A stretch of DNA of 64,000 nucleotides from Alphaproteobacteria bacterium. GTDB lineage: Bacteria > Pseudomonadota > Alphaproteobacteria > RF32 > CAG-239. The position numbers were made by a program, and so were the translations under genes. This document shows positions 5,161 to 57,150 of this stretch, piece after piece (the stretch's first letter is position 1; each line of letters starts with the position of its first letter). The stretch covers positions 15,572 to 79,571 of the forward strand of contig SUUV01000003.1 of NCBI GenBank assembly GCA_015062345.1. The letters are read 5' to 3'. Under the pieces are notes generated by a model, which was not told where the DNA came from, searched no databases, and saw only the letters and a program-made list of their open reading frames with translations.

Positions 5161-5298
5161 CCTCATTTTTGATTTAAATCCACAAATAGACTCTTTTTAC
5201 TTGCAAAAAAAAAAAACGGTTTATGATGCGTCTTGAAAGGGCATTTTTGCCTTTTGAATGAAAATTAAGTTAAACTATTTTTGTAAAGGATATAAATT
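5161..5298 (+). promoter_or_regulatory. Conserved promoter-leader module (copy B1): TTTGATTTAAAT box, TTGCAA, A12 tract 5215..5226, TATGAT, leader hairpin, RBS.
   Basis: Near-identical to seven other copies in the window. Confidence 0.7.
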
Positions 5299-5763
5299 AT
5301 GAGAAAATATTTTCTTTTATCTGCTGTTGCGCTTTTAACTGCAACCACAGCAAATGCAACCACCGACTATGCTGAAGTAACAGCTAAGGCTACAATTGAG
5401 GTGGCATCAGTATTTAGTTGCAGTGATTTAAATTTTGGTAAAATTGTTGTAAAAAACGGCCATGAAGATACTTATGTTGTTCTCGGTTATGAAGTAGAGT
5501 ATGACAAGGAAAACATCATATCATTTTCAGAATATGAAATGGCAGCTTGTAATAATCTGCTTGAGGTAACAGGCAATGATAGTATTATGCTTGATCATGC
5601 AACTTTACCTGAAACCATTACTTTATCAGGACCAAACGGAAGTAAATTAACAGTATCTGATTATCAAATATTTGATTGGGACTTTGGCGGTAAATTAAAT
5701 ATACCGGCAGGTATTCAAGCTGGCGAATATACAGGTTCATTTACCGTAACTGTAACATACTAA
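5299..5763 (+). CDS. Secreted small protein, MRKYF family paralog 1 (Csu/SCPU-pilin-like).
   Basis: Signal peptide MRKYFLLSAVALLTATTANA. CSDLNFG motif. C-terminal GEYTGSFTVTVTY. Followed by terminator 5774..5803. Confidence 0.8.
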   Translation: MRKYFLLSAVALLTATTANATTDYAEVTAKATIEVASVFSCSDLNFGKIVVKNGHEDTYVVLGYEVEYDKENIISFSEYEMAACNNLLEVTGNDSIMLDHATLPETITLSGPNGSKLTVSDYQIFDWDFGGKLNIPAGIQAGEYTGSFTVTVTY

Positions 5764-5773
5764 TCCAAATTTT

Positions 5774-5803
5774 AAGGGAGCTGATTGGCTCCCTTATTTT
5801 TAT
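5774..5803. terminator. Bidirectional intrinsic terminator.
   Basis: aagggagc-tgattg-gctccctt followed by a T-run. Lies between convergent genes. Confidence 0.6.
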
Positions 5804-5851
5804 AATTTCAATTGCGCATTTAATGAGGTTTAAGGCTTCATCTTTTTAAAT

Positions 5852-6238
5852 CTATTTTTTCACAGATTTGATTTTTTTTAAAGATTCAATTTCCCGTTCA
5901 AGATACATAACTCTTTGACGCAACTCATTTATGGTCATACCTTGCAATTTTTCATCAAATTCAAACTTAGGTCTGCCTCGCTTATTCAGCTTAGGATATT
6001 TTTTCTGAAATTTCCATCTGACCAAACATTTAGTTGCGTATTTACCACAATTAAACCAATCGGGTATACCTGCTTCGGAGAATATTTGCTTGGCTGTTTT
6101 ACCCGACTTTTCATGCTCACGCAAAACTTTTTGCTTAAATTCTTCTGTGTATTCCACATTGCTGTTAATAACTTTTGATATATTAGAATTGCGTTCTAAT
6201 TCTCTTTTTTCTTCTGAAGTAAATATATGATGTTTCAT
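5852..6238 (-). CDS. Solo HTH plus leucine-zipper protein resembling IS3-family OrfA; no OrfB partner is present.
   Basis: HTH (SGKTAKQIFSEAGIP), an RGRP motif, and a C-terminal coiled coil ELRQRVMYLEREIESLKK. Confidence 0.4.
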   Translation of the reverse strand: MKHHIFTSEEKRELERNSNISKVINSNVEYTEEFKQKVLREHEKSGKTAKQIFSEAGIPDWFNCGKYATKCLVRWKFQKKYPKLNKRGRPKFEFDEKLQGMTINELRQRVMYLEREIESLKKIKSVKK

Positions 6239-6277
6239 CCTCTATCCTTTCTTATTTGCGTACATTATAAACAATTT

Positions 6278-10495: not shown

Positions 10496-11134
10496 CTAGT
10501 AATACCACATGATATAAACTCTGCAACTGGAACTAGTCTTTAAGCAACTATTACAAAGGGTGTCTATGTCACTAATTGTCATAGTTTTAAGACATTTTAC
10601 ATTATCCGTGCAGTAAGCATCTCCGTATAAATTACCATTAGATGTTGATATCTGTGTTTGCATATCTCGGCTATCGGTTGTTACATATCCTAGTTGAAAG
10701 GAGTTAGCTTTGGCAACATCAATAAGATTATAGCAAATATCCAGTTCATCGGAAGTAAAACTATAACCTATGCCTGACCTTTTCATTGATGTATTATAGA
10801 ATAACCAGATGTCATTATTAAACATATCTTTCAGAAATGTAGGGTCACGGGCAATTTCAAAACCATCCGGGACAAAGCCGGCTTTATAAAATGTTTCTGT
10901 ATACCAAGCTGTTCCGTTTTCATCAATAGAACCTGCAAAATTGGTTGTTTTTTCCGATTGTTGAATAGCAGTATTTAGGAGCATATTAAAGCTTTGAGCA
11001 TGCGTATTTAGTTTATATTTCATCATCGCTTTAGAATATCCGGCAATAGCACCGACCGATAAAACTCCGATTATGGCCAATACACCAAGCATTTCAACCA
11101 TACTTCTTCCAAGCTCACAAATTTTTCTCATCAA
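10496..11134 (-). CDS. Type IV pilin-like protein, paralog 1.
   Basis: Class III signal peptide MMRKICELG|RSMVEMLGVLAIIGVL with E at +5. C-terminal Cys pairs. Confidence 0.7.
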   Translation of the reverse strand: MMRKICELGRSMVEMLGVLAIIGVLSVGAIAGYSKAMMKYKLNTHAQSFNMLLNTAIQQSEKTTNFAGSIDENGTAWYTETFYKAGFVPDGFEIARDPTFLKDMFNNDIWLFYNTSMKRSGIGYSFTSDELDICYNLIDVAKANSFQLGYVTTDSRDMQTQISTSNGNLYGDAYCTDNVKCLKTMTISDIDTLCNSCLKTSSSCRVYIMWYY

Positions 11135-11215
11135 CTAACTCCATATATTATATTCTGTTCACATTCTAAACCGTTTTTTTTTTTTGCAATTTTAAAGAGT
11201 CTATTGTGGATATTT
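11135..11215 (-). promoter_or_regulatory. Promoter of pilin-like gene 1, with the same TTGCAA-A12-CGGTTTAGAAT core as the MRKYF promoters.
   Basis: Reverse complement reads agactcttt..ttgcaaaaaaaaaaaacggtttagaatg. Confidence 0.6.
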
Positions 11216-11290
11216 AATCATTTTTGAGGTGATAGTCAAATAAATTTATATTTATCATCGCTTAATAACTTTAGTAAGCAATTATTACCG

Positions 11291-11470
11291 AAGTCCGCCT
11301 CCTAACTGTCACTCCGGCACTTGATGCTGAAATCCGCCTCCTCACTGTCACTCCGGCACTTGATGCCGGAGTCCAGGTGGTAATATAGCTTTATTTATTC
11401 CTAGATACCGGTGTCTATTCCAAGCTAAAGCTTGGGCACCGATATGACCGTGATGAGAGAGACACCTCTA
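11291..11470. repeat. Conserved structured element A, copy 1. Its 5' ~40 bp are tandemly duplicated.
   Basis: Shared with 22619..22751 and 53737..53880. Contains nested inverted repeats. Confidence 0.7.
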
Positions 11471-11607
11471 CACCATTTTTGATTTAAATTCTTTATTAGA
11501 CTCTTTTTACTTGCAAAAAAAAAAAACGGTTTATGATGCAATGTGAAAGGTTAATTTTGCACCTTTCAAATGTACTTAAACTTAATTTTTGTAAAGGATT
11601 TAAAATT
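11471..11607 (+). promoter_or_regulatory. Promoter-leader module B2 (A12 tract).
   Basis: Same module as B1. Confidence 0.7.
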
Positions 11608-12075
11608 ATGAGAAAATATTTTCTTTTATCTGCGGTTGCAATGCTCGTTGCAACATCAGCAAACGCAACCACAGACTATGCCGAAGTAACCGCTAAAGCT
11701 ACAATTGAAGTGGCTAATACTTTTACTTGTTCTGATTTAAACTTCGGTACCATCGTCGTTAAACAGAATAATGGTGATTCAAAAGTTATTGCCAATTCTG
11801 TCGTAGGAGTAATTTTTGAAGGAGACATTTTATCTGTTAGCAGTGATGCATCATATTCACAATGTCATGGCTTTGGCGAAACAATGGATCCTGAAGGTAG
11901 CTTTAATACTTCCGTTCCTGATTCTGTACCACTTACAGATGGAACTAATGAATTGGAAGTTAAACCTTCTTTAGATAGTTCGTCCATGGATATTATTGGT
12001 GGTGAATTAGAAATCCCTGCCCATGTTAAAGCAGGTGAATATACAGGTTCATTTACCGTAACTTTCACCTACTAA
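11608..12075 (+). CDS. MRKYF family paralog 2.
   Basis: MRKYFLLSAVAMLVATSANATTDYAEVTAKATIEVANTFTCSDLNFG...GEYTGSFTVTFTY. Start chosen at the conserved MRKYF, not at the ORF-track extension. Confidence 0.8.
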   Translation: MRKYFLLSAVAMLVATSANATTDYAEVTAKATIEVANTFTCSDLNFGTIVVKQNNGDSKVIANSVVGVIFEGDILSVSSDASYSQCHGFGETMDPEGSFNTSVPDSVPLTDGTNELEVKPSLDSSSMDIIGGELEIPAHVKAGEYTGSFTVTFTY

Positions 12076-15693: not shown

Positions 15694-16296
15694 ATGATTT
15701 ACGGATATGTGCGTGTGAGCAGCGACAAACAAACAACTCAAAACCAAATTTTTGAAATAAATTCTTTTGCAAAAAGTAACAATCTTAAAATTGACAATTG
15801 GATAAACGAAACCATAAGCGGACTGTATGATGTAAAAAAAAGAAAACTCGGTAAGCTCTTAAAAAAAATGAAAAAAGGCGACATTATGATTAGCTCCGAG
15901 CTTTCAAGATTAGGCCGCAATTTATTGCAGGTTATGAGTATTTTATCATATTGTATGGAGCACGAAATTGCTGTTTGGACCATAAAAGATAATTATCGAT
16001 TAAGCATTGATATTCAGTCAAAAATTATGGCTTTTGCGTTCGGATTATCGGCAGAAATTGAACGCAATTTGATTTCTCAGCGAACAAAAGAAGCTTTGGC
16101 TCGCTTAAAAGCCGAAGGTAAAACTTTGGGAAGACCTAAAGGAACATTAAAAGCTCAATATGTTTTAGAGCAAAATAAAGAGCAAATTTTAAATGATATA
16201 AAATCTGATGTACCTTTTATTAAAATCGCCGACAAATTTAATGTTTGTGATAAAACCTTGCGAAGATTTTTAAAAAAAAATAATATTAGCTATTGA
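15694..16296 (+). CDS. Small serine recombinase (resolvase/invertase family).
   Basis: N-terminal YGYVRVSSDKQ catalytic motif. C-terminal HTH. 200 aa. Confidence 0.85.
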   Translation: MIYGYVRVSSDKQTTQNQIFEINSFAKSNNLKIDNWINETISGLYDVKKRKLGKLLKKMKKGDIMISSELSRLGRNLLQVMSILSYCMEHEIAVWTIKDNYRLSIDIQSKIMAFAFGLSAEIERNLISQRTKEALARLKAEGKTLGRPKGTLKAQYVLEQNKEQILNDIKSDVPFIKIADKFNVCDKTLRRFLKKNNISY

Positions 16297-16352
16297 AAAG
16301 CAAATTTTCAACCCTATCTAAAAGTTGTAATTTTTTAACTAAAGATAGGGAT

Positions 16353-17285
16353 ATGACGCAAAATATAAAAATAGCCGTACAATTTTTCGGGCACTTAAGG
16401 ACATTTGAAAAATGTGCCATAAGTATTAAAAAACACATTTTATCAAAATATGACTGTGATGTGTTTATGCATACTTGGTCAGATACTGAGCATTCAACAC
16501 AAACTTGGCACAATATGAAATCTAAGGTGCAAACCGTAAATCAAAAAATGCTTGAAAAAATTGAAAAACAATATCTGCCGAAGATGACCTTGGTTGAAAA
16601 GCAAATTTTGCCCGAAGATGATACCTTAATGGCTTGTATGCATAATAAAAAAGCAAAAATGATTTCGGCAAACGGTATGAAATTTATGCTAAAATCACAA
16701 ATTAAGGTTAATGAACTTCGAAAACAATATGCCAAAAAAAACGGTATAAACTATGACATTGTCTTAATGTTGCGTCCGGATATTTATTTATATTCCGATT
16801 TAGATATAAATAAAATTGTAAAAGAATGTAATGCGGTTATAGATTATCCGGCTCGATTTTGTGTCAGTAACGCCTTAAAAAAGGGAGGGACTTGCGCTTT
16901 TACGAGTGATATGTTAAGTGATGTATTTTATTTGGCAACACCTTCAAGTATGGATTTAATTGTTGATGCATTTAAAAACATAAAATTTGAAAAATTTACC
17001 GAAAAACTGTGGACTCCTGAAAATCTGATTACCAATATCTTATTTAAAAAAGGTATTGCCACATTTGCTTTGTTATATTTTTTTAATCGAGATTTCGAAA
17101 TTATCAGAGGTTCATATTGCGACAAAGAAAAACGAAAAAGATTTATAAGTTTTAAGCTCTCGCATAAAACTTTAAGATTAAACATATTTGGTTTTATGGC
17201 AAAAAGCTTTGTTTCGATGGACTTTCATATATTTAACTTGTTTAATATAGATTTTTCAATAGGAAAACCTCATGCAAAATGCTGA
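16353..17285 (+). CDS. Hypothetical protein, possibly polysaccharide-related.
   Basis: ORF. ATG at MTQNIK lies downstream of a hairpin at 16308..16350; the track start at 16293 is a TTG extension. Confidence 0.5.
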   Translation: MTQNIKIAVQFFGHLRTFEKCAISIKKHILSKYDCDVFMHTWSDTEHSTQTWHNMKSKVQTVNQKMLEKIEKQYLPKMTLVEKQILPEDDTLMACMHNKKAKMISANGMKFMLKSQIKVNELRKQYAKKNGINYDIVLMLRPDIYLYSDLDINKIVKECNAVIDYPARFCVSNALKKGGTCAFTSDMLSDVFYLATPSSMDLIVDAFKNIKFEKFTEKLWTPENLITNILFKKGIATFALLYFFNRDFEIIRGSYCDKEKRKRFISFKLSHKTLRLNIFGFMAKSFVSMDFHIFNLFNIDFSIGKPHAKC

Positions 17286-18129
17286 ATTTATAAAACCCTT
17301 AACCGGACATTCCGGTTGCGGTTTAAATTTATATAAAAAGGACGATAAACTTTTTTTAAGAAAAGATTCAGGCGATTGTTCATACAACCGGCGCTTAAAA
17401 AAACAATATATTAAGCAAAACAAATTTTTCCTAAACGGTATAAGAACTCCGAAAATTTATAATCACGGACATGAAAACGGCTTATTTTACTTTGATATGG
17501 AGTTTTTAAACGGTATAACCTTGGCAGAATATATGTCCAATATCAAAATTAAGGAAATAAACTCGCTTATAGGCTTATTGTTTAAATCTTTACCGGTTGA
17601 AAGTTCTAAAATTTTACCTGATACCGATGCTGTTTTTAAGAAAAAAATCAGGCAAATCAAAACCAAACTGCGCCCAAGTGACAGCCAAGCCTTAATTGCA
17701 GTTGATATGCTCGAAAATTTTGATTTTTCTATGGTTCCGTTTAGCTATTGTTGCGGTGATTTGACCTTAGAAAACATTATGCTTGATGATAACAAACAAA
17801 TTTATTTAATTGATTTTCTTGATTCTTTTTATAACTCTTGGATGATTGATGTGGCAAAACTTTTGCAAGACTTAGAGCTTCATTGGTCTTATAGAAATCA
17901 GGAAGTTGACTTTAATTTATCCATGCGTTTGGCAGTGGCAAAAGAAGCCTTGTTGGAAAATATTGCCGAATATGAAAATGCAAAAGAAAACATCTGCACC
18001 ATTTATCACATTTTACTGTTAAACATTTTGCGCATAATTCCTTATGCCAAAGACGATAAAACGCATTTATTTTTAAAAAATGCTTTAAATAAAATTATAC
18101 AAACCATCAAACAAACGGAGAAAAATTGA
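17272..18129 (+). CDS. Protein-kinase-like phosphotransferase (choline kinase / APH family).
   Basis: Brenner/catalytic-loop-like GDLTLENIML and IDFLDS motifs. Confidence 0.6.
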   Translation: MQNAEFIKPLTGHSGCGLNLYKKDDKLFLRKDSGDCSYNRRLKKQYIKQNKFFLNGIRTPKIYNHGHENGLFYFDMEFLNGITLAEYMSNIKIKEINSLIGLLFKSLPVESSKILPDTDAVFKKKIRQIKTKLRPSDSQALIAVDMLENFDFSMVPFSYCCGDLTLENIMLDDNKQIYLIDFLDSFYNSWMIDVAKLLQDLELHWSYRNQEVDFNLSMRLAVAKEALLENIAEYENAKENICTIYHILLLNILRIIPYAKDDKTHLFLKNALNKIIQTIKQTEKN

Positions 18130-18130
18130 T

Positions 18131-19186
18131 ATGTGTACTCTTATAATTCCCTGTGCCGGAAAATCGAGCCGTTTTCCGAATATGAAACCCAAATGGATGC
18201 TAACTCACCCTGACGGCAAACTTATGATTGAAAAATCTTTGGAAGGTATAAATTTTGATAATTTCAAACGCATCATTATCACCATTGTCAAACCGCATGA
18301 TGAAAAATATGATGCCAAACTTATTTTGGAACAAGTTTTTCGGCATAATAAAAAAATTGAAATTTGTGTTTTGGAAGATTTTACGCAAAGTGCAAGCCAG
18401 ACCATATATTTAACCATACAAAAAATGAACATTCAAGGCGCTTTTGTGATTAAAGATTCGGATAACAAGGTTTTGTTTGATATGCCTCAAAAAATAAAAA
18501 ATGCAATTGTCGGGTTTGATTTAGCCAAGCATCCGGACATTGCCAACATTCCGGCAAAAAGTTTTTTGATTGTAAATGAACAAAACATTATTCAGGACAT
18601 TATCGAAAAACAAGTTGTGTCAAAGTGCATTTGTCTTGGTGTTTATATGTTTGAAAGGGCGTTCGATTTTATACAAGCTTATGAAGAATTAAGCCAAAAA
18701 AATGTCAAAGGAGAAATGTTTGTCAGCCACATAATTTCTTATATGCTAACTTGTGGCAACACCATATTTACGGCCATTATGGCTAACTTTTTTGAAGATT
18801 GGGGCACATTATCCGAGTGGCACAAAGTTCAAAAAAAGCATCGCACATATTTTGTTGATGTTGATGGCGTCATACTTAAAAATTCGGGCAAATACGGCAT
18901 TGTAAATTGGAGCAACAATAAAACGGTTTTAGAAGAAAATATCAAAAGCTTACTTGAGTTGCAAGAAAACGGTGCTCAAATTGTGATTACCACATCAAGA
19001 ACGGAAGAATATAGGGAAGATTTGATAAATATATTGCATCAAAACAAAATTTTTCCGTATGCGATTTTAATGGGTCTAAATCATGCGGCAAGAGTTGTTA
19101 TAAACGATTTTGCTCCGACTAATCCGTATCCGTCGGGCATAGCTGTCAGTTTGCCGAGAAATACTAATATTAAAGATTATTTATAA
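18131..19186 (+). CDS. Fusion of a nucleotidyltransferase (MobA/LicC-like) and a HAD-like phosphatase domain.
   Basis: N-terminal LIIPCAGKSSRF. C-terminal FVDVDGVI (HAD motif I). Confidence 0.6.
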   Translation: MCTLIIPCAGKSSRFPNMKPKWMLTHPDGKLMIEKSLEGINFDNFKRIIITIVKPHDEKYDAKLILEQVFRHNKKIEICVLEDFTQSASQTIYLTIQKMNIQGAFVIKDSDNKVLFDMPQKIKNAIVGFDLAKHPDIANIPAKSFLIVNEQNIIQDIIEKQVVSKCICLGVYMFERAFDFIQAYEELSQKNVKGEMFVSHIISYMLTCGNTIFTAIMANFFEDWGTLSEWHKVQKKHRTYFVDVDGVILKNSGKYGIVNWSNNKTVLEENIKSLLELQENGAQIVITTSRTEEYREDLINILHQNKIFPYAILMGLNHAARVVINDFAPTNPYPSGIAVSLPRNTNIKDYL

Positions 19187-19197
19187 AGGAGAGAATT

Positions 19198-20205
19198 ATG
19201 AACATATTAATTACCGGAGGAGCCGGATTTATCGGTTCCGAGCTGGGAAAATTTTTAGTTGCGCAAGGCCACAATGTTAAAATTTTGGACAACTTGGAAT
19301 ATGGCTATAAAGACAATTTTGAAGATAACCAAACCTTAAAGAATAACTTCATATTTGCCGATATCAGAGATACCGATTTTGCAAAACACTTAAAAAACAT
19401 TGACATATTGTATCACTTTGCCGGTATATCGGCTTTGCCAGAGTGCGAATCAGAGCCTTACAAGGCCTTTGATGTTAATACCTCAGGTGTGGCAAATGTG
19501 TTAAATGCGTGCAGAAATTCTGATGTGAAAAAAATTATTTTTGCTTCAACATCTGCCGTGTATGAAAACAATTGTGCAACGGAACATCACAAAGAAACCG
19601 ACATTGTGTGTCCTAACCTTATTTATGCCACCTCAAAATATTGCGCCGAGCAAATTTGCAAATCGTATGCTCAAAATTATGATATGGACATCATCATTTG
19701 CCGATTTTTTAATGTATTCGGCCCACATCAAGACTTTAGGCGCAAATATCCGCCGTTTACAAGCTATATTATCAAAATGGCTTTAAGCAATGAAACACCT
19801 ACAATTTTTAATTGTGAAGATTGTAAACGAGATTATATCTACATTGATGATTTGTTGCAATATCTGTATCAAATGGCAACAAGCTCAAAAAAATATTCTG
19901 CCGAAATATTTAATTTGGCTACTTCAAATGCGTACAGCGCCATTGAAATTGCGCAAACGGTGTATGATATATTAAACAAAGAATTTGCCTTTAATGTTGG
20001 CGATGCCGAAAAGTTTTGGGATAAATATGACAATTTGTTTAACCAAAAATATAATTTAAGCCGGTTGAGGGTAAAACAAGAGGTTTTTAAGCATTGCTTG
20101 GGAAACGGGCAAAAAGTAGCAAAAGAATTTAATTATAGTCCTAAAACTAACTTAAAAGAAGGTTTGCGCAAAATTATTGAATATCAAAAAAATTATAAAG
20201 GGTAA
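19198..20205 (+). CDS. NAD-dependent sugar epimerase/dehydratase.
   Basis: ILITGGAGFIGSEL Rossmann motif and YxxxK. Confidence 0.8.
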   Translation: MNILITGGAGFIGSELGKFLVAQGHNVKILDNLEYGYKDNFEDNQTLKNNFIFADIRDTDFAKHLKNIDILYHFAGISALPECESEPYKAFDVNTSGVANVLNACRNSDVKKIIFASTSAVYENNCATEHHKETDIVCPNLIYATSKYCAEQICKSYAQNYDMDIIICRFFNVFGPHQDFRRKYPPFTSYIIKMALSNETPTIFNCEDCKRDYIYIDDLLQYLYQMATSSKKYSAEIFNLATSNAYSAIEIAQTVYDILNKEFAFNVGDAEKFWDKYDNLFNQKYNLSRLRVKQEVFKHCLGNGQKVAKEFNYSPKTNLKEGLRKIIEYQKNYKG

Positions 20206-20208
20206 GGC

Positions 20209-21304
20209 TATGTCAAAAATCAGTTCAAAAGATGTATCAGTTGTTGTTCAGGGTAAAAATGTGCATAAACATACAGCCAAATGCTTAAAAAGTTTGCGAG
20301 AACATTTTCCTTATGCCGAAATTATATTTTCAACTTATGATGATGAAGATGTGTTTGGCCTTGATTTTGATATCTTGGTACAATCTGCTGACCCGAATGC
20401 AACTTTATTAAGCGGTAAAATGTACAACAACATTAATCGCATATTGACCACTACCAGAGCCGGACTTGAAAAAGTCAGCCGAAAATATTGTTTGAAGATT
20501 CGCTCAGATTTGATGTTTGATAACGATAAAATTTTATCCGATATCGCTTCACAATTTCCGTTAAGAGATAAACAATACAGCATATTTAAGGAGCGAGTTT
20601 TATTTTATTGTTTATGGAGCCGAAAATTTGAATATATCGACCATAAATATTACATACAGACACCGTTTCACTTAAGCGATTGGCTTTGTTTCGGTTTAAG
20701 CGAAGATATAAAAAACTTTTTTAGCGATATTCCCTTAACCGATGAGCCTGAATATTCACACTATTTTAAAAACTCCGAAAACAGAGCACAATATATGTTT
20801 GAGCCTAATGTAACTTGGAAATTCCCGCCGGAACAATATTTTACAACCACCTTTTTCGGCCGTTTTTTTGAGCAAGCCAATATGAAATCGTTGCAAGATG
20901 TAACAGCAAAAAAAGTTGAGCTTTCAAGGAGAATTTTTGCTTCAAATGTGGTGGTTTGCGGATATAAAGAATGTGGAGCATATATTCAAAAAGATGATTA
21001 CAAATATGTATCAAAAAACATAAATTGGCTCAAAGGTGTTTGGCTTAGCGGTGTTTATCGTTATGCCGATTTTCTGTCCGATTATAAAAAATATTGCGAT
21101 GAAAATTTTGAAATTCCAAATATTTATTTATGGGCATTAAACCAGCAAATTGATAGTGATGCCGTTAAACTGAGTAAACATTATAAAACTTTTATGCAAC
21201 CGATAAGAGTGGTTCTAAAATGGTTAGAACAGTTTTTTGCTATTGTTTTTTATGCCGTAAAAATAGGTTTTGCTACAATAAAACTATATTTTGGCGGTAA
21301 ATAG
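20209..21304 (+). CDS. Hypothetical protein, WavE-like LPS biosynthesis family (tentative).
   Basis: ORF of 365 aa. Weak recollection of the WavE family only. Confidence 0.4.
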
Positions 21305-21860: not shown

Positions 21861-22003
21861 TTTTAAAATTCCTTTACAAAAATTAAGTTTAAGTACATTT
21901 GAAAGGTCAAAAAATCACCTTTCACATCGCATCATAAACCGTTTTTTTTTTTTGCAAGTAAAAAGAGTCGTTTAAAAGATTTAAATCAAAAATGAGGTGT
22001 TTT
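21861..22003 (-). promoter_or_regulatory. Promoter-leader module B3 (T12 on the plus strand).
   Basis: Reverse complement matches the B consensus. Confidence 0.7.
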
Positions 22004-38924: not shown

Positions 38925-38933
38925 TGCTTACTC

Positions 38934-42272: not shown

Positions 42273-42325
42273 TTTTCTTTCTTCCTTTTTATTTTCTTAA
42301 TTAACGACAAACTGGAACTATAACG

Positions 42326-43315
42326 CTAACTTTTGGTGTTGTTTTTTCCCCTTTTAATTTTTATCTTCAAGCCTAAAATTGTTATTATCTTATGTGTTTT
42401 AGTAGTATTATTTTTTACGGAAAAAATATTTTGAATATACTTTTTAATAAATTGTTTGTATACAAAACTTTTAACCTTTGGATTATATTTGCTCATTTTC
42501 TTAATTATTTTATACGAACGAAAATTCAGATAACTTCTTACATATGACAAATGTTGCTCGAGCCTAATATAAGAGTATTCATTTAACTTACTCAAATTAT
42601 ATTCATGAGCATATTTCATATTATCTAAAATTCCCATCAGCATATGATTTGTTTTTTCTGTATTCCATTTAACTGTATTATGCCCAATCCTATAAGCATA
42701 GGTAATTTTATCAAGAGCATAAAATCTTTTGGCTTTTATCATTGCATTAACAAAAAAAGGAGGATCTTGAAATCGTTTATATAACGGATAAAAAATTTCA
42801 TTTTCTAATAAAAACTCTCTATCATAAACAAAGCGATGATATCCATAATCAAACTGATAATCTTTATATTCTATTATTTCATTTTTTTCAAATAAATATC
42901 CTAAAAAAGAATCTTGATATTCTTTTTCAAGTACATCTGCATTATTTGTAAAATGAGAGAATTCTCCGCCACAAATTAATACATTATTTTTTATTGCCCC
43001 ATGATACAATACTGCCAAAACATCTTGCGTCGGATATTTATCATCAGGATCAATAAAACAAACAAACTCGCCTTTGGCAAGTTTTATACCATTATTTCTT
43101 GCGGTTGAAACCCCTTTATTTTCTTGATTAAAAACGATTATTCTATTATCTTTTTTCTCATACTCACATAAAATCTCAAGGCTATTATCAGTTGAACCAT
43201 CATTAATGCAGATAATTTCAATATCTTCTAATGTCTGATTTATTATACTATCCAAACATTCTCTCAAGTATCTTTCAACATTATATACCGGTATTATTAC
43301 ACTAACTTTTGGCAT
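42326..43315 (-). CDS. GT2-family glycosyltransferase.
   Basis: MPKVSVIIPVYNVERYL...DGSTDNS. C-terminal KTHKIITILGLKIKIK motif. Confidence 0.85.
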   Translation of the reverse strand: MPKVSVIIPVYNVERYLRECLDSIINQTLEDIEIICINDGSTDNSLEILCEYEKKDNRIIVFNQENKGVSTARNNGIKLAKGEFVCFIDPDDKYPTQDVLAVLYHGAIKNNVLICGGEFSHFTNNADVLEKEYQDSFLGYLFEKNEIIEYKDYQFDYGYHRFVYDREFLLENEIFYPLYKRFQDPPFFVNAMIKAKRFYALDKITYAYRIGHNTVKWNTEKTNHMLMGILDNMKYAHEYNLSKLNEYSYIRLEQHLSYVRSYLNFRSYKIIKKMSKYNPKVKSFVYKQFIKKYIQNIFSVKNNTTKTHKIITILGLKIKIKRGKNNTKS

Positions 43316-44379
43316 TAATTGAAACTCCATTTTTTTCCAAACAATGTTACAGATACTTCACGCTTATTTAACCTAAGGCTAAAAAACTTTTTCTTGTTTC
43401 GTTTTTTTAATATTTTTTCTCGAGCCAAATCAATATCTTTTTTTATTAATAAATATAACTCTTTTTCATCATCACGAACAATTTTACTTTCTGAAAACAA
43501 TTTTTCCGGCATATATGACATAAGTTTTTTTATTTTTTTCTTACAATCCTCAAAATCTGCTATATCTTTCATACCTAAAACAATGCGGATATAACCAAGT
43601 TCTCTCCTTGCCAATTGCAATAAAATATTTTTATCTTTTATCTTATTTTGCTTTAACCATTGATGTATTTCTTCACTTCGCTTAAATGGAATTGTATAGT
43701 CTTTTAATGCATCTGATTCATACTTATCCAATATTCGCCAGTAATAATATGCTTTAGAAGTATAATTTATTTTGTTTGCCAAACACATTGTTTGAACTTG
43801 AAACGGATTATCAGTCCAACCGGAGCCGGGAGCTTCTATAAACTTAATATTATGTTTTGTTAAAAATTCTCTATTATAAATACAACTCCATACACTTGGA
43901 TGATAATATAAAAAGTAAGGATATTCTTTTATCTTGAAACTCTTATTTTCAGGTATAAAATCTTCCCATTTTACTTTAGTTAATTTTGTTTTCTCTTTTG
44001 CTTGAAAATTATTATAAAATGCCGATTTAACAATATCAGAATTATACTTTTCAGCTATTGCATACAAATCAGCATACATATCAGAATCAATATAATCATC
44101 AGGTTCAACAATTGCTACATATTCACCGGTTGCCTGACTCAAACCAACATTACACGCTTGTCCATAACCACCGTTTTCTTTATGTATTACTTTTATGCGC
44201 CTGTCTTTTAGAGCATATTCATCTATAATTTGCGGACACGCATCTTTTGAACCGTCATCAATAAGTATAATCTCCATATCTTTTAATGTTTGCGCCAATA
44301 TGCTGTCTAAACATTCTCTTAAATATTTTTCAACTCCATAAATCGGAACAATAACAGAGATTTTTGGCTTTTTAACCAT
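43315..44379 (-). CDS. GT2-family glycosyltransferase.
   Basis: ISVIVPIYGVEKYL..DDGSKD..EPDD. Confidence 0.85.
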   Translation of the reverse strand: MVKKPKISVIVPIYGVEKYLRECLDSILAQTLKDMEIILIDDGSKDACPQIIDEYALKDRRIKVIHKENGGYGQACNVGLSQATGEYVAIVEPDDYIDSDMYADLYAIAEKYNSDIVKSAFYNNFQAKEKTKLTKVKWEDFIPENKSFKIKEYPYFLYYHPSVWSCIYNREFLTKHNIKFIEAPGSGWTDNPFQVQTMCLANKINYTSKAYYYWRILDKYESDALKDYTIPFKRSEEIHQWLKQNKIKDKNILLQLARRELGYIRIVLGMKDIADFEDCKKKIKKLMSYMPEKLFSESKIVRDDEKELYLLIKKDIDLAREKILKKRNKKKFFSLRLNKREVSVTLFGKKWSFN

Positions 44380-45496
44380 TTTTCTTTACCTCCTCAAATA
44401 AATCCAATGCTCTGGCAATGGCTTTATCCATATCGTAATACTTATAATCCCCTAACCGACCCAAGAAGTACACATTCTTTAAAGCTTTTGCTTTTTCTAA
44501 ATAGCGATTATACAAGTCTTGATTTTCTTGTTTTACAATCGGATAATATCTATCATTTTTACCCTGTTCAAAGTTGATTGGATATTCATAAGAAACTACC
44601 GTTTTTTCAGATTTGTTATCCAAAAAATATTTATATTCGCCAATTCTGGTCCAATTATAATTATTCGGATAGTTCACAACCGAATTTGTTTGAAAATATG
44701 GCTTATCATAAGTCAAAAAGTCAAATTTTAAGCTACGATATGGCAATTCACCTAATTCATACTCAAAAAATTCGTCAATCGGGCCGGTAAAAAACAATCT
44801 ATCATATTTTACTTTCCCTTTAATATCACTCCACTTTGTATTTAATTTAACTTTTATAAGCGGATTATCTAACATTTTTTCTATAACGGCCGTATATCCG
44901 TTTAACGGAATTCCCTGATATATATCTTGGAAATAACGATTATCTCTGCTGATATATACAGGAACTCTGCCCGTTACTGCCGGATCTAAGTCTTCGGGTT
45001 TCATACCCCATTGCTTTAATGTATAATGTAAAAATATTTTTTCATAAACATAATCGGCTAAAAACTCTAAATCTTTGTCACCGGCTTTTCTTAACTCCAA
45101 TATCGGAACTTTTACATTAAAACCAAATTTTGCAATCAGTTTTGTTTCCAACACATCTGCAATTGATTTTGGAAACACTTGATGTATAGAATTTAAGTTA
45201 AAAGGAATTGGAACTAATTGACCATCAATTTGCCCTTTCACTTCATGCATATAAGGATACCATTGTGTAAATGTTGATACATAATCCCATACATTTTTTA
45301 AGTTGGTATGAAATATATGCGTGCCATATTGATGAACACAAATACCGTTTTTATCCCAGTAGTCATAACAATTACCGCCTATATGATTTTTAGAATCAAT
45401 TATCACAACTTCTTGACCTAACTCTGTCGCAATTTTATTTGCCAAAGTAACGCCGGAAAAACCCATTCCTACTATTAAATTTTTTACATTTTCCAT
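44372..45496 (-). CDS. glf: UDP-galactopyranose mutase.
   Basis: FAD-binding motif GMGFSGVTLA...GGNCYDY and a Glf-like core. ATG at 45496 preferred over the longer ORF. Confidence 0.85.
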   Translation of the reverse strand: MENVKNLIVGMGFSGVTLANKIATELGQEVVIIDSKNHIGGNCYDYWDKNGICVHQYGTHIFHTNLKNVWDYVSTFTQWYPYMHEVKGQIDGQLVPIPFNLNSIHQVFPKSIADVLETKLIAKFGFNVKVPILELRKAGDKDLEFLADYVYEKIFLHYTLKQWGMKPEDLDPAVTGRVPVYISRDNRYFQDIYQGIPLNGYTAVIEKMLDNPLIKVKLNTKWSDIKGKVKYDRLFFTGPIDEFFEYELGELPYRSLKFDFLTYDKPYFQTNSVVNYPNNYNWTRIGEYKYFLDNKSEKTVVSYEYPINFEQGKNDRYYPIVKQENQDLYNRYLEKAKALKNVYFLGRLGDYKYYDMDKAIARALDLFEEVKKNG

Positions 45497-46314
45497 CTTT
45501 TCTTTCCCAATCCTATTGCGGTTAAAAATTTTCTCTTCATTTTTTTGAACTGATATTTTCTCCACTTTAGTTTATTTTCTTCAATAAACAACAAGGGAAG
45601 TTCTTTGATTTTTAATTCTTTATGAACAGATAAAAACGCACCCGTTAAGCGTTCTGCTAAAAATCCATAAACCCTTTGTTGGTATACATCTCTTTCCATT
45701 ACATCAGATTGAATTCTTTTTTCTACTTCAAATAAAATACTAAAAAGCCATTTGGCATATGCATCAAATACTTCTTTTTTGGCAACTATTATATTACACC
45801 TGTACATTTGTGAATTATTTTTTATAAAATCACATGCAATATCATATTGTTCCGGATATAATTTTTTTATGACATCTAAAGCAACTTCCAAATCTGAAAT
45901 GATATGCTCGTTCTTATAATGTTCATAAAGGCTGGTATTGATTTTTTTGGTCATTTTAGGAACAAGTATGTCATATTGTTGTAAAAGTGTTTGTATCTTA
46001 CTTTTAACAATGTGATAATTTGTTAAAATATCTTCGTGTTCTATAAATTCTACTTTTTCATTATCCTTAAAATTTAAATATCTGCGATAATGAAATAAGC
46101 CGACATAATCAGCTTTGATATTTTTCCATATCCAATATGTTGCCGTAAGCTCGCAAAAGTATGGATTTTTTGATGAGATATTATCTCCCGTATTATCCCC
46201 TATAAGACCGAGTTCTTGCTTGCTCAATTCTTTACCGACATGAATTGGAGTAATAATATCGTTTTTCAGCAACAAACAATTCTTGTGATAACAAGTGAAT
46301 ATTTTACATTCCAT
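45484..46314 (-). CDS. DUF4422-like putative glycosyltransferase (galactofuranosyltransferase-like).
   Basis: KIFTCYHK...PIHVGK...LGLIGDNTGDNISSKN..CELTATYWIWKN. Confidence 0.6.
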   Translation of the reverse strand: MECKIFTCYHKNCLLLKNDIITPIHVGKELSKQELGLIGDNTGDNISSKNPYFCELTATYWIWKNIKADYVGLFHYRRYLNFKDNEKVEFIEHEDILTNYHIVKSKIQTLLQQYDILVPKMTKKINTSLYEHYKNEHIISDLEVALDVIKKLYPEQYDIACDFIKNNSQMYRCNIIVAKKEVFDAYAKWLFSILFEVEKRIQSDVMERDVYQQRVYGFLAERLTGAFLSVHKELKIKELPLLFIEENKLKWRKYQFKKMKRKFLTAIGLGKKRWKM

Positions 46315-53013: not shown

Positions 53014-53577
53014 CTACCAATACACATCTATCGTACACCAACCTTCGCCGCAAGCAGCTGTGCAAGCGTTACTTATTTGTGACATATTTATATTGGTCAT
53101 ATCTTCCGGAGAAAACAGCTCTATACTATACGGACTATCTATTCTAATGAGCCCATAAGAATGTAAGTGCTTATATATACCGCTTGTAAAAAAGGCATTA
53201 CACATATCAACAGCAAAGTCATTTGTAGGGTGTATAATAAAATATGTGGAACCATTTGTGCTACTCTCAAATTGATAACCACCAATAGGAAGTTTGCACT
53301 TATGACCATTATAATGCTCATCAAAATATAAATCACAGTCAAGACCTATTTTAGGTGCGTCTTCAACATCTATGTCACCCGTTAAGGAACCGGATACTTG
53401 TAATTCAGTCAATTTTGCAAAAGCACCTGATACAATATCTAATGTTGTGTTTATTTTATGTTTTAGCATGGCTTTTGAGTAACCGGCAATGCCACCAACA
53501 GATAACACACCGATAATAGCCAAAACACCGAGCATTTCTACCATACTTCTTCCAAGTTCACAAACTTTTCTCATCAA
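53014..53577 (-). CDS. Type IV pilin-like protein, paralog 2.
   Basis: The N-terminal 40 aa are nearly identical to paralog 1 (MMRKVCELGRSMVEMLGVLAIIGVLSVGGIAGYSKAM). The C-terminus is divergent and Cys-rich. Confidence 0.7.
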   Translation of the reverse strand: MMRKVCELGRSMVEMLGVLAIIGVLSVGGIAGYSKAMLKHKINTTLDIVSGAFAKLTELQVSGSLTGDIDVEDAPKIGLDCDLYFDEHYNGHKCKLPIGGYQFESSTNGSTYFIIHPTNDFAVDMCNAFFTSGIYKHLHSYGLIRIDSPYSIELFSPEDMTNINMSQISNACTAACGEGWCTIDVYW

Positions 53578-53660
53578 CTTACTCCTTTAAAACATATTTT
53601 GAGCTCAGCATAAACCGTTTTTTTTTTTTGCAATTTATACGAGTCTTCTTTGTGGATAAT
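53578..53660 (-). promoter_or_regulatory. Promoter of pilin-like gene 2 (TTGCAA-A12-CGGTTTATGCT).
   Basis: Reverse complement matches the shared core. Confidence 0.6.
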
Positions 53661-53736
53661 TAGTCATCTTTGAGGTAATAGCCAAACAAATTTATATTTA
53701 TCACCTCTTAATAACTTTAGTAAGCAATTATTACCG

Positions 53737-53880
53737 AAGTCCGCCTCCTAACTGTCACTCCGGCACTTGATGCCGGAGTCCAGGTTAAATTATATAGCTA
53801 AATTATTCCCTGGATACCGGTGTCTATTCCAAGCTAAAGCTTGGGCACCGGTATGACCGTGATGGGAGACAACACCGCTA
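53737..53880. repeat. Structured element A, copy 3.
   Basis: Hairpins H1/H2/H3 intact. Confidence 0.7.
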
Positions 53881-54016
53881 CCTCAAATTTGATTTAAATT
53901 CACAATTAGACTCTTTTTACTTGCAAAAAAAAAAACGGTTTATGATGTGATGTGAAAGGCGATTTTTAGCTTTTCAAGTACATTTAAACTTAATTTTTAT
54001 AGAAAGGATTAAAATT
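53881..54016 (+). promoter_or_regulatory. Promoter-leader module B6 (A11).
   Basis: Consensus module. The tract is one A shorter than in other copies. Confidence 0.7.
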
Positions 54017-54505
54017 ATGAGAAAATATTTTCTTTTATCTGCTGTGGCTTTAATGACTGCAAGTAATGTTATGGCTGCAACAACAGCATCAACTGATGTA
54101 GAAATTTCAGCAAGTATTGAACTTATGAGCAATATAAATTGCTATGAACCGGAGCCGCTGTCATTATCTGTACGAGCCGGCAATGATGATTTGTCCATAG
54201 ATTTAGCAAATCCTAGCACTTCAAGCACTGATTATATGTTAATTGCAGGTGGAAACCCTCTGGTTGAGTGTAGTATCACTCACAAACTTGAGGGTCGAGG
54301 GTCAATAGATTTACCGGAAACAGTAACCCTAACCGGAACATCATCGGAGAAGAAACTTACTCTTACAAATTTATCAGAAATGTTTATTGCAGAACCAATG
54401 TCCGGAGTATATGCATATGGTATTGATGCAACATTAAATATTCCGGCAAACATTGATCAAGATACCTACACAGGAACTTTTACAATTTCTGCTACTTACG
54501 AATAA
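54017..54505 (+). CDS. MRKYF family paralog 5.
   Basis: MRKYFLLSAVALMTASNVMA...DTYTGTFTISATYE. Confidence 0.8.
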   Translation: MRKYFLLSAVALMTASNVMAATTASTDVEISASIELMSNINCYEPEPLSLSVRAGNDDLSIDLANPSTSSTDYMLIAGGNPLVECSITHKLEGRGSIDLPETVTLTGTSSEKKLTLTNLSEMFIAEPMSGVYAYGIDATLNIPANIDQDTYTGTFTISATYE

Positions 54506-54544: not shown

Positions 54545-54841
54545 TTAAAAAACCGAAACCAAATCTTGTTTTATTAAATTATAAAATTGCTCATTAATTT
54601 TATGATAATCGGAAAAATTTACCACATAAGGCAACGAGCTTTCATCAAGCTGTTGTTTAATTGTTTCCAACTCATTAAAAGGCATCTCATTTTTACCTTT
54701 AATCAAAATATCCAAATCGGACAATTTGGAAAAATTGCCTTTAACTCTTGAGCCGTAAAAATAAAAATCATATTTATCGGAAAACGGACATAAAATGTCC
54801 TTAACAATTTTTTCTTCTGCCAAAGACATTCCGCTAATCAT
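54545..54841 (-). CDS. Minimal nucleotidyltransferase (MNT / HI0073-like).
   Basis: GSRVKGNFSKLSDLDILI (GS...D.D motif). Confidence 0.75.
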   Translation of the reverse strand: MISGMSLAEEKIVKDILCPFSDKYDFYFYGSRVKGNFSKLSDLDILIKGKNEMPFNELETIKQQLDESSLPYVVNFSDYHKINEQFYNLIKQDLVSVF

Positions 54842-54842
54842 T

Positions 54843-55265
54843 TTATGCTCCGTTTAATGCTTTTTCAAATGCCAAAACCAAAAACTCTGTTTCTGCAATA
54901 AATTGAGGCATTATATTTAACAATTCTCGTGCTTTTACAATGTTATATTCATGAGAAGTATCGTTTCTTTTGGCATAATATTGTTTCCAATTTTCCCAGT
55001 TCATAATCATATCATATCCGGCCATAAAACGAAAAATATTATTAACGGTCAGTTCATTGTCGTTTTTTGCATAAAACAACTTTAAATATTTTCTCATCAG
55101 TTTAAGCGCTGTTTCCATTGTATATTCAAACCGTTTGACACACGAATCGGCCACGATGTCGGCAAATATGACATTATCTTGTTGCTGATTATAAACTTCC
55201 CAACAATTTTTTAAGGTTGCCAGAGCATTTTTCAAATTATCAATATTAAATTCTTTATTGTCCAT
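54843..55265 (-). CDS. HEPN-domain protein (HI0074 family), partner of the MNT.
   Basis: The HI0074-like sequence sits directly upstream of the MNT with a 1-nt gap. Confidence 0.7.
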   Translation of the reverse strand: MDNKEFNIDNLKNALATLKNCWEVYNQQQDNVIFADIVADSCVKRFEYTMETALKLMRKYLKLFYAKNDNELTVNNIFRFMAGYDMIMNWENWKQYYAKRNDTSHEYNIVKARELLNIMPQFIAETEFLVLAFEKALNGA

Positions 55266-55329: not shown

Positions 55330-55470
55330 TTTCTTACCTCATTTTTGATTTAAACACTTCAAAAGACTCTTTTTACTTGCAAAAAAAAAGATTTAAAATG
55401 CGACATGAGAGACTAATCTTTAGCCTTTCATATGCACTTAAACTTAATTTTTGTAAAGGTCCTATAGTAT
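55330..55470 (+). promoter_or_regulatory. Orphan, decayed promoter-leader module B7. No downstream MRKYF gene.
   Basis: cctcatttttgatttaaa...agactctttttacttgcaaaaaaaaa, then a degenerate -10/leader. It abuts the 3' end of rnhB. Confidence 0.6.
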
Positions 55471-55475
55471 AATTT

Positions 55476-56105
55476 CTACACCCGATTTAAAATCTCAGCT
55501 ATCGGTTTATATGATTTTCGGTGTTCATCGCATATACCATATTGTTTCAAGCCCTCAATATGCGCTTTGGTGCCATAACCGGCATTTTTTTCGAATCCGT
55601 AGTATGGATATTTTTTAGCCAATTCTTGCATCAAATTATCACGATAAACTTTTGCCACAATTGAGGCACCGGCAATTGAAAAAGACAAACTGTCACCTTT
55701 GATAACGGTTTGTACCTTGCACTTAAAAGGTCTTGGTGTTTGATTACCGTCAACTAAAGCAACATCAGGTTTAACCGATAAGTTATCAACCGCACGACGC
55801 ATGGCATTAAAAGTGGCTTGTAAGATATTAATTTCATCAATTTCTTGCGCTGTTGCCAAACCGATACCGTAGCTTAAATTTCCTTTTTTGTTTTCATCAA
55901 CAATCAACTCATAAAGCCATTCTCTTTTTTTGGCGCTCAGTTTTTTCGAATCGTTAAGCGATGATAACAAATGCGGATTTATATTATCCTTATTTAAAAA
56001 CACCACCGCACCTGCTACAACCGGCCCTGCCCAAGGGCCACGACCTGCTTCATCAACTCCGGCAACAATACCGCTATGTATATTTTCAAAGCTCCAATCT
56101 GGCAT
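55476..56105 (-). CDS. rnhB: Ribonuclease HII.
   Basis: VAGVDEAGRGPWAGPVVAGAVV. Confidence 0.9.
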   Translation of the reverse strand: MPDWSFENIHSGIVAGVDEAGRGPWAGPVVAGAVVFLNKDNINPHLLSSLNDSKKLSAKKREWLYELIVDENKKGNLSYGIGLATAQEIDEINILQATFNAMRRAVDNLSVKPDVALVDGNQTPRPFKCKVQTVIKGDSLSFSIAGASIVAKVYRDNLMQELAKKYPYYGFEKNAGYGTKAHIEGLKQYGICDEHRKSYKPIAEILNRV

Positions 56106-56166
56106 TTGTATTATCCTTTCTTTTAAAAAAGCTAACACAAATTAAATGTGTTTTCCAACATTGTTT

Positions 56167-56478
56167 TTAGTTTCTCACAATCGGAACTCCTTCATAGTCG
56201 GCTTCTATCATACCGCCGATTACAACCGCCACATTATCATAACCGCTTTTTTCAAACATTTGCGCCGCTTGTGACGACCGTCCTCCCGATGAACAAATTA
56301 TATTAATGGTTTGTTTGCCGTCAAGTTTATGCTCTTTTATAAAAATCTCCGGTTTTAAGGTGCGCAACGGCTCAAACTCGTGCTCAAAAGCCAAACTTTC
56401 TTCTTCGTGCTCTTCATAATCCCGAACATCTAAAATCAGCGAATCGGGTGTTAAGTCTTTGGGCTTGATAAATCGCAT
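56167..56478 (-). CDS. Single-domain rhodanese-like sulfurtransferase.
   Basis: Active-site loop CSSGGRS. Confidence 0.75.
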   Translation of the reverse strand: MRFIKPKDLTPDSLILDVRDYEEHEEESLAFEHEFEPLRTLKPEIFIKEHKLDGKQTINIICSSGGRSSQAAQMFEKSGYDNVAVVIGGMIEADYEGVPIVRN

Positions 56479-56540
56479 ATATACCTCCTTTTTTTAAAGA
56501 TATAATGCTTATTATGACAGTTTAAATTAGATAATTTTCA

Positions 56541-56679
56541 TACCTCAAATTTGATTTAAATTCACAATTAGACTCTTTTTACTTGCAAAAAAAAAAAACG
56601 GTTTATGATGTGATGTGAAAGGTGAGTTTTGCACCTTTCAAGTACATTTAGACTTAATTTTTATAAAGGAATTAAAAAA
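56541..56679 (+). promoter_or_regulatory. Promoter-leader module B8 (A12).
   Basis: Consensus module. Confidence 0.7.
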
Positions 56680-57150
56680 ATGAGAAAATATTTTCTTTTT
56701 ACAGCTGTAGCCCTCTTGGCTGCAACAAATGTTAATGCCGATGAATTTGGTACGGTTAATGTAAATGCAACGGTTGAACAAGTTACACGCATTACTTGTT
56801 CTGCACTTGAATTAGGTACTATTTATATTGATTCTTCAAAAGGTTCATCCGGTAGTTATACTATTAATCTTGGCAATGCGGAAAACATTGAAGGAGCTAT
56901 CGTAAGGGTTGATGATACAAGTCAGCCAAGGTGTACTTTTGGCGGAGCGATAGATATATCAAAAGTGGAAATTCCTTCAACATTACAAATTGAAGATGTT
57001 CCGGCAGGAAATGTGATGAACATTACATTACTTCCCAAAGATTATGAAGCCAGTAATGGAATATTGGATATTGAAGCAGAGATAGAAATAGATGCTGATT
57101 TTGACGCCGGAGATTATACAACATCGTTTAATGTTTTTTACATCGATTAG
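56680..57150 (+). CDS. MRKYF family paralog 6.
   Basis: MRKYFLFTAVALLAATNVNA...GDYTTSFNVFYID. Confidence 0.75.
   Translation: MRKYFLFTAVALLAATNVNADEFGTVNVNATVEQVTRITCSALELGTIYIDSSKGSSGSYTINLGNAENIEGAIVRVDDTSQPRCTFGGAIDISKVEIPSTLQIEDVPAGNVMNITLLPKDYEASNGILDIEAEIEIDADFDAGDYTTSFNVFYID

Follow-up and report, generated by a model that had tools for sequence, protein, structure and literature searches.

Most known contingency-style multigene families of surface proteins come from pathogens, Bordetella, Neisseria, Mycoplasma and Anaplasma among them. In Mycoplasma hyorhinis, a poly-A tract between -35 and -10 governs the on/off expression of the vlp genes, and both vlp and the vlhA genes of Mycoplasma gallisepticum form large families of complete genes, each combining a divergent exposed part with a highly conserved 5' region that comprises promoter, untranslated region (UTR) and signal peptide. 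In Bordetella, the dispersed genes fim2, fim3, fimX and fimN carry a conserved 'fim box' and a 'C-stretch', and transcription changes with the length of the latter (PMC1891110). Here we analysed a stretch of 64,000 nucleotides (the window; contig SUUV01000003.1, positions 15,572 to 79,571) from E7016, a metagenome-assembled genome (MAG) of an uncultured member of the Alphaproteobacteria whose relatives come from ruminant guts. Scattered there among housekeeping genes are genes encoding secreted proteins that resemble pilus subunits, each behind a near-identical promoter, an arrangement suggestive of a system by which the cell surface is varied. The explanation that we favour, at a probability of roughly 55%, is that the genome maintains a library of at least 30 interchangeable fibre or coat subunits in self-contained cassettes, tuned by a poly-A tract in the promoter and reshuffled by recombination.

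Eight dispersed loci of the family, as announced by an earlier sequence-only reading of the window, were recovered at the same coordinates (Table 1): six intact open reading frames (ORFs), one pseudogene and one relic consisting of the promoter only. The intact ORFs encode proteins of 154–165 amino acids (aa) starting with MRKYFL. Exact copies of the 15-mer ACTCTTTTTACTTGC occur eight times in the window, against 0.3 expected by chance, and those of ATGAGAAAATATTTTCT seven times. Each family locus is preceded by a module of ~140 bp, and among the six intact copies mean pairwise identity was 81% over the upstream 150 nt, 72% over the signal-peptide codons and 56% over the rest of the coding sequence (CDS), the last against a shuffled baseline of 53%. 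At the protein level, the same six copies averaged 68% identity in the signal peptide, 26% in the core (baseline 17%; individual pairs of paralogues span 19–40%) and 43% in the last 15 residues. These values agree with the earlier view of a family of small Sec-secreted proteins whose ends are conserved and whose core is highly divergent, in which the noncoding 5' module is better conserved than the proteins themselves. The C-terminal G-x-Y-x-G-x-F motif that had been attributed to all members is strong in the c5299/c11608 subfamily and not in the others. For c11608 and c56680, ORF callers may read further upstream into the UTR (11533–11607 and 56629–56679), which yields products of 180 and 173 aa; this probably explains why exact-match look-ups of some copies failed, and it inflates annotated protein lengths.

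The window is placed in E7016 by the identity of c21860 with E7016_01235 and of a pilin-like ORF with E7016_01185, the tags being spaced in agreement with its gene order. The family has at least 30 paralogues in E7016 (30 distinct E7016_ locus tags among the family matches). Since these tags reach ~07865, the genome would hold ~1,570 genes, assuming the steps of 5 usual for NCBI tags, of which the family makes up ~2%. A MAG from roe-deer colon, RGIG4267, carries 29 family loci and is the sole GTDB species representative matching the signature peptides of the family. An exhaustive profile search returned 513 clusters (50% identity) at E <= 1e-3 and 174 at E <= 1e-10.

The module has a constant anatomy, which reads ACCTCAwwTTTGATTTAAAT, N10, GACTCTTTTTACTTGC, A(n), CGGTT, TAnnAT, 7 nt, a hairpin, ~25 nt, AAAGGA and ATG. 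The A-tract sits in the promoter spacer, between a -35-like element TTGC(AA) and the -10 element TAnnAT, the promoter having been assigned from its consensus only and not from transcription start data. We collected 59 non-redundant modules, 47 of them driving DUF4402 genes (the family is named below). The -10 hexamer is TATGAT in 45 modules, TAAGAT in six, TAGAAT in three and TATGCT in one; positions T1, A2 and T6 never vary, like in sigma-70 -10 elements. The tract measures A12 in 36 of the 47 DUF4402 modules (77%), the others having A8 (two), A9, A10, A11 (four), A13 (two) and A14; all 11 of these non-A12 modules stand before intact ORFs, and the two decayed copies of the window have tracts of A8 and A9. 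In the 40 type-1 modules, the 16 nt on the 5' side of the tract show one substitution in 640 sites and the 7 nt on its 3' side none in 280. Tract length thus deviates in eight of these 40 modules (20%) against one substitution in 920 flanking sites, and, as judged from the sequences compared, no other position of this strongly constrained module is nearly as mutable as the tract. The module is equally conserved in RGIG4267 and in the window genome; gene conversion inside a single genome is therefore not enough to explain it, and functional constraint is required. The concerted evolution previously proposed for the control region is at best half the story. A metagenome scan with the pattern TTGCAAAAAAAAN{0,8}CGGTTTA gave no real module among the at least 120 matches listed, the pattern being too loose and the matches due to chance. 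Two candidate control systems were rejected: a helix-turn-helix gene (22229–22522) as regulator of the family, since it is unique and not repeated at the other divergent pairs, and promoter inversion by the serine recombinase encoded at 15694–16296, since no independent assembly contains an inverted module.

Downstream of the -10 element, a hairpin folds in all 43 unique UTRs, starting ~7 nt past the -10, i.e. at ~+1, with z-scores of -2.1 to -4.6 for the window copies; it was assessed by per-sequence folding, the loop carrying indels. Its core stem GAAAGG/CCUUUC shows G-U variants and a few double changes (e.g. AAGAGG/CCUCUU), and the inner pairs covary freely (GGU/ACC, GGGCA/UGCCU, GGCUAA/UUAGCU). 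Such a stem-loop at the 5' end would most likely stabilise the mRNA. A translational role is also possible, since the Shine-Dalgarno site is complementary to the 3' arm of the stem (CCUUUC). Strong intrinsic terminators follow five of the six intact genes, and each locus is therefore monocistronic. Rfam matched nothing in the window other than a tRNA. In 26 unique UTRs the segment between hairpin and Shine-Dalgarno site reads ACTTAAACTTAAT, whereas 15 have the reverse complement, ATTAAGTTTAACT (e.g. 11573–11590 compared with 5266–5283); the segment is a small inverted element or else a TTAA-NN-TTAA site working both ways.

Comparison with RGIG4267 revealed replacement and relocation of whole cassettes within a well-preserved chromosome. 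Housekeeping orthologues of the window are 85–100% identical at the amino acid level (DnaA 98.8%) and syntenic DNA is 89–97% identical; the best cross-genome matches of the window family members reach 31–53%. Syntenic sites in RGIG4267 are occupied by unrelated members of the family, as at the c54017 site, where a different member is found. Around dnaA, identity falls from 92% and 97% in the flanks to 77% in the module and 57% (baseline) in the CDS; the left breakpoint is at the ACCTCA box and the right one exactly at the stop codon, the terminator being conserved with the locus. The promoter-only relic shares 93% identity with modules that stand before intact genes in RGIG4267, and synteny stops right after its Shine-Dalgarno site. 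One allele is common to both genomes (88–92% nt identity) but lies between unrelated, non-syntenic flanks, and in one strain a further copy lies in tandem upstream of c5299. Stability of the alleles within the species is seen from the identical c5299 protein, present on 13 contigs, and the identical c22889 protein, present on 10. Given this stability together with cassette replacement and relocation, the divergence does not come from hypermutation; the sequence comparisons show old, deep paralogy plus replacement and relocation of units made of module and CDS. The diversifying selection on the exposed part that the sequence-only reading had put forward found no support in these data. Widespread mosaicism of the cores was also rejected, just one clear mosaic pair of paralogues (L021/L027) having been found. 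In RGIG4267, the contigs L031 (1–657) and L038 (1–644) have their upstream DNA and module in common (94% identity) and lead from there into different family genes, with tracts of A14 and A12, which suggests either two population alleles or a duplicated toxin-antitoxin-plus-module unit. In the window, an NTP_transf_2 and NTase_sub_bind gene pair, resembling MNT/HepT-type toxin-antitoxin systems (54545–55265, minus strand) and 97–98% conserved in RGIG4267, lies between two family loci.

Two of the six intact genes encode members of the uncharacterised Pfam family DUF4402 (PF14352), with scores of 39.2 bits (c5299) and 40.7 bits (c11608) over a curated cut-off of 25.2 bits; c54017 falls just under it, at 22.5 bits, and c21860, c22889 and c56680 have no Pfam match. 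All six cores match the family profile of the clade, the last three at E values from 6e-11 to 2.6e-4, and many relatives are named DUF4402 by NCBI. No mention of DUF4402 was found in the literature searched. As for the suggested likeness to Csu/spore-coat-U-type pilins, none of the six proteins matched SCPU (PF05229) in Pfam, even at E <= 1, and membership of that family was rejected; a profile search of PDB sequences, including CsuA/B and CupE1, gave no match at E <= 10; and Foldseek against the PDB returned noise only (TM ~0.15). In all six proteins, MRK and a hydrophobic core are followed by (A/V)-x-A before the cleavage point (a signal peptidase I site read by rule), and two cysteines, which probably form a disulfide, are conserved. 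AlphaFold predicted beta-sandwiches for c5299 (pLDDT 83) and for the divergent c21860 (pLDDT 82). The signal peptide and an N-terminal extension are disordered in both monomer models, and the extension is unpacked against the domain; the first 14–18 mature residues are conserved, with alternating hydrophobic residues (A-E-V-T-A-K-A-T-I-E-V and similar). On these models we lean towards a Sec-exported DUF4402 protein with an immunoglobulin (Ig) fold like that of chaperone-usher pilins. Gene context lends independent support. A canonical DUF4402 protein encoded on plasmid p2 of Novosphingobium sp. ES2-1 (NZ_CP063447; Pfam E = 1.8e-30; C-terminal end GAYTGNFTVTVTYQ) aligns over the full length with c11608 (tblastn E = 5e-9) and was the sole match in the plasmid collection. 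Its gene is immediately upstream of those for a 144-aa ORF, a PapD_N chaperone (E = 2.7e-8) and a 920-aa protein; the latter was considered as the usher, an assignment that neither Pfam nor PDB sequence searches returned.

The same promoter design precedes a second multigene family, encoding type IV pilin-like proteins, of which two genes in the window are transcribed divergently from c11608 and c54017. The poly-A tract, the hairpin in the 5' UTR and these pilin-like genes are additions to the earlier description. The pilin-like ORFs (187–212 aa) start with MRK(I/V)CELG followed by RSMVEMLGVLAIIGVLSVG, a prepilin-like signal with G at -1 and E at +5 but R at +1, and their Pfam N_methyl match is sub-threshold (E = 0.079). 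At least 7,900 homologues exist, nearly all unnamed, one being called PilE by JGI, and further members with variable, Cys-rich C-termini are found on L011, L014, L015, L017, L018, L022 and L033. Their promoter reads ACCTCA...GACTC(G/T)T(A/T)TAAA(T/A)TTGC-A12-CGGTTTA..., the UTR behind it is short and lacks the hairpin, and all pilin-type modules have A12, in E7016 as in RGIG4267. In RGIG4267, both upstream promoter sub-types precede both gene families; the parts have therefore been recombined, joining at the TTGC-A12-CGGTTTA core that they share. The intervals that separate pilin-like genes from their divergent DUF4402 neighbours contain tandem GC-rich hairpin repeats (11290–11385 and 53745–53790) and a GC-rich palindromic element resembling repetitive extragenic palindromes (GGTGTCTATTCCAAGCTAAAGCTTGGGCACC; exact copies at 11410–11440 and 53819–53849, others at ~22690 and at L015 4500–4540). 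This element is kept in the sister species, and a role as insulator, terminator or recombination site is conceivable.

According to the explanation that we favour, each locus is a single-gene expression cassette composed of promoter, mRNA 5' hairpin and ORF, to which all but one of the six intact copies add a strong intrinsic terminator. The N-terminal extension with its alternating hydrophobic residues could act as a donor strand, and the C-terminal strand (GxYTGxFxVTxxY) could provide both the acceptor groove and the edge on which a chaperone docks; together, the conserved ends would make up a shared assembly interface, through which any member could use the same machinery, and the divergent middle would be the exposed surface of the subunit. 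Conserved ends around a variable middle would indeed fit interchangeable fibre subunits that keep donor strand, groove and docking edge. One constrained promoter design would drive all copies, and the type IV pilin-like family as well; slipped-strand changes in tract length would retune or switch individual genes, as proposed by analogy with the C-stretch of the Bordetella fim promoters; and the repertoire would turn over by recombination swapping or moving whole units of module and CDS. A more ambitious version, a surface-variation system of commensal gut Alphaproteobacteria not described before, in which one assembly route, possibly non-canonical, polymerises any of more than 30 DUF4402 subunits, each switched independently through its A12, in which a single regulatory design varies two fibre types by also controlling the pilin-like library, and in which cassettes are exchanged between loci and lineages, seems to us rather improbable.

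Several observations weigh against the fibre-subunit library. A search through signal-peptide-bearing ORFs, combined with tblastn using the Novosphingobium chaperone and 920-aa protein, found no chaperone, usher or homologue of these partners in the window, in ~450 kb of RGIG4267 or in a further ~40 kb of E7016; the ~490 kb beyond the window amount to roughly a quarter of a ~1.6-Mb genome and are not decisive. For the window itself, a Pfam scan of every sizeable ORF confirmed the absence of chaperone and usher stated by the sequence-only reading, and the family genes stand outside any Csu-type chaperone/usher operon. Their neighbours have housekeeping or unrelated functions (gltX, rpoD, asd, an MscS channel, groES/EL, dnaA, fpg, rnhB, pntAB and similar). 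Next to c11608, the ORFs of 339 and 801 aa that had been considered as chaperone and usher proved to be aspartate-semialdehyde dehydrogenase and the MscS channel. Regarding regulation, 15 of 17 sequences from fixed loci (window plus independent assemblies) have A12 and the two exceptions, A11 in L004 and A13 in L170, are both at contig ends, so that frequent switching is invisible at the consensus level. Moreover, A12 gives a spacer of just 15 bp from TTGCAA, the best -35 match, or of 16–17 bp from poorer hexamers, so that a generic sigma-70 scan did not call the promoter; an effect of tract length on expression is argued from analogy.

This constancy of the tract is what would be expected if A12 were a fixed spacer or bend of a co-regulated promoter, or set the distance between an activator and the -10, with one regulator expressing all copies jointly and the variants being silenced or decaying copies or assembly errors. 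We take this seriously, at somewhat less than even odds: besides the fixed loci, A12 prevails among the DUF4402 modules and is invariant in the pilin-type modules of both species, the upstream boxes show the conservation to be expected of activator sites, and the decayed window copies have tracts of A8 and A9. Against such a fixed spacer stand the 11 of 47 modules that deviate from 12 and still precede intact ORFs, which would be unexpected after irreversible silencing; a 12-nt homopolymer is, in addition, intrinsically prone to slippage, and this one mutates far more than its flanks, and the comparable tracts of Bordetella fim promoters do modulate transcription (PMC1891110). As to the proteins, they could alternatively be stand-alone Ig-fold proteins, secreted or periplasmic (soluble adhesins, lectins or binding proteins), whose conserved ends would simply be a signal peptide and the edge strands that close the fold. 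We consider this unlikely, since an N-terminal stretch that is conserved and alternates hydrophobic residues is left unpacked in both models and since a canonical DUF4402 gene, that of Novosphingobium, is linked to a PapD_N chaperone. Finally, an ordinary family of recent duplicates, or an artefact of repeat assembly, might be invoked for a module at which many contigs break, being a repeat hard for assemblers; this is refuted by paralogue cores sharing so little identity, by the reproduction of the loci across independent samples and assemblers and by the 29 family loci of a second species.

Table 1. Coordinates of family loci, their modules and the type IV pilin-like genes in the window.
Feature	Position	Strand	Details
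c5299 promoter/5'UTR module	5160–5298	+	ACCTCA...TGATTTAAAT box, GACTCTTTTTACTTGC, A12, CGGTT, -10 TATGAT, hairpin from ~+1, Shine-Dalgarno AAAGGA; same in 6 independent assemblies, A11 in one assembly
c5299, DUF4402 gene	5299–5763	+	154 aa; signal peptide ends ...TANA, followed by TTDY; two Cys; C-terminus GEYTGSFTVTVTY
c5299 terminator	5773–5806		
Type IV pilin-like gene (E7016_01185)	10496–11131	-	Starts MRKICELG followed by RSMVEMLGVLAIIGVLS; variable Cys-rich C-terminus
Promoter module of pilin-like gene	11132–11230	-	ACCTCAAAAATGATTAAAT...GACTCTTTAAAATTGC-A12-CGGTTTAGAATG; short UTR, no hairpin
c11608 promoter/5'UTR module	11470–11607	+	A12
c11608, DUF4402 gene	11608–12075	+	155 aa; Pfam DUF4402 E = 4.5e-10
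c21860, divergent family member	21363–21860	-	165 aa; identical to E7016_01235
c21860 promoter/5'UTR module	21861–21998	-	A12
c22889 promoter/5'UTR module	22752–22888	+	A12 in window and 5 independent assemblies
c22889, divergent family member	22889–23377	+	162 aa; core against family profile E = 6e-11
Pseudogene module	32693–32807	+	Tract down to A8; -10 is TACGAT
Decayed family gene	32808–33105	+	Premature in-frame stop near 32974, internal deletion; C-terminal remnant ...EYEGVTTVVVTY ends ~33105, then terminator
Second type IV pilin-like gene	53014–53574	-	Starts MRKVCELG followed by RSMVEMLG...
Type-2 promoter module of second pilin-like gene	53575–53672	-	GACTCGTATAAATTGC-A12-CGGTTTATGCT
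c54017 promoter/5'UTR module	53880–54016	+	A11
c54017, family member	54017–54505	+	162 aa; Pfam DUF4402 E = 2e-4, under curated cut-off
Promoter-only relic	55336–55459	+	A9; no gene behind module
c56680 promoter/5'UTR module	56542–56679	+	A12
c56680, most divergent family member	56680–57150	+	156 aa; core against family profile E = 2.6e-4

Other surface-related genes were observed in the window. Two surface-polysaccharide clusters have no counterpart in the RGIG4267 DNA examined and may be strain-variable islands: one (35209–46314, minus strand; GC 26–30%) contains glycosyltransferases, UDP-galactopyranose mutase and an ABC exporter, and the other (15694–21304, plus strand), preceded by the serine recombinase, contains WavE, an epimerase, a choline-kinase-like protein and a nucleotidyltransferase. 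A gene for Slam, the surface lipoprotein assembly modifier (PF04575, E = 2.3e-40), lies beside a 477-aa ORF without Pfam match (1571–2920 and 2921–4354, both on the minus strand), the N-terminus of which is lipoprotein-signal-like and followed by a run of Gly (MRLSTILTTLMLTTALTAC-GGGGGGG); the two are probably Slam and its surface-lipoprotein substrate.

These results propose a testable role, that of a chaperone-usher-like fibre subunit, for the so far uncharacterised DUF4402. Devoting ~2% of ~1,570 genes to a subunit library, in addition to a second, pilin-like one, represents a large investment, and if such a system truly operates in an uncultured herbivore-gut commensal, it would suggest that pressure by host immunity, phages or adhesion niches acts on such organisms as it does on pathogens. 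The extreme conservation of a promoter of ~100 bp makes it suited to studies of control by spacer tracts. For metagenomics, the modules break assemblies, and the cassettes, which differ between close relatives, are possible strain markers.

Compared with described systems, the Bordetella fim genes are the closest documented regulatory analogue. The fim genes encode major subunits of chaperone-usher type; as here, they are scattered, monocistronic and away from chaperone and usher, and a conserved promoter contains, upstream of the -10, a long homopolymer whose length varies between genes and strains (PMC1891110). The differences lie in the number of genes (3–4 there, at least 30 here), in the tract (poly-C there, poly-A tightly centred on 12 here) and in the subunits (classical Fimbrial-family pilins there, DUF4402 here); furthermore, the promoter described here also drives a type IV pilin-like family, and its switching is inferred only. 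The archaic (sigma) chaperone-usher pili, such as Csu of Acinetobacter and CupE of Pseudomonas, differ in that the proteins studied here have no SCPU or PDB sequence match, and in that these pili are not the best structural matches; csu and cupE are operons that include chaperone and usher, whereas the present genes stand alone. The Novosphingobium locus shares with them the Pfam family, a full-length alignment and the C-terminal motif, but is a single copy clustered with a PapD_N chaperone and a 920-aa protein, with neither A-tract module nor expansion. In layout, the Mycoplasma vlp and vlhA families are alike, each gene having a conserved 5' region and a divergent exposed part; they are, however, clustered genes for lipoproteins with internal repeats in wall-less bacteria, in contrast to the Ig-fold pilin-like proteins of a Gram-negative organism, encoded by genes scattered among housekeeping genes. 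The family described here is thus a new variant of the contingency-style multigene surface-protein family, built on an uncharacterised Pfam family in an uncultured gut alphaproteobacterium.

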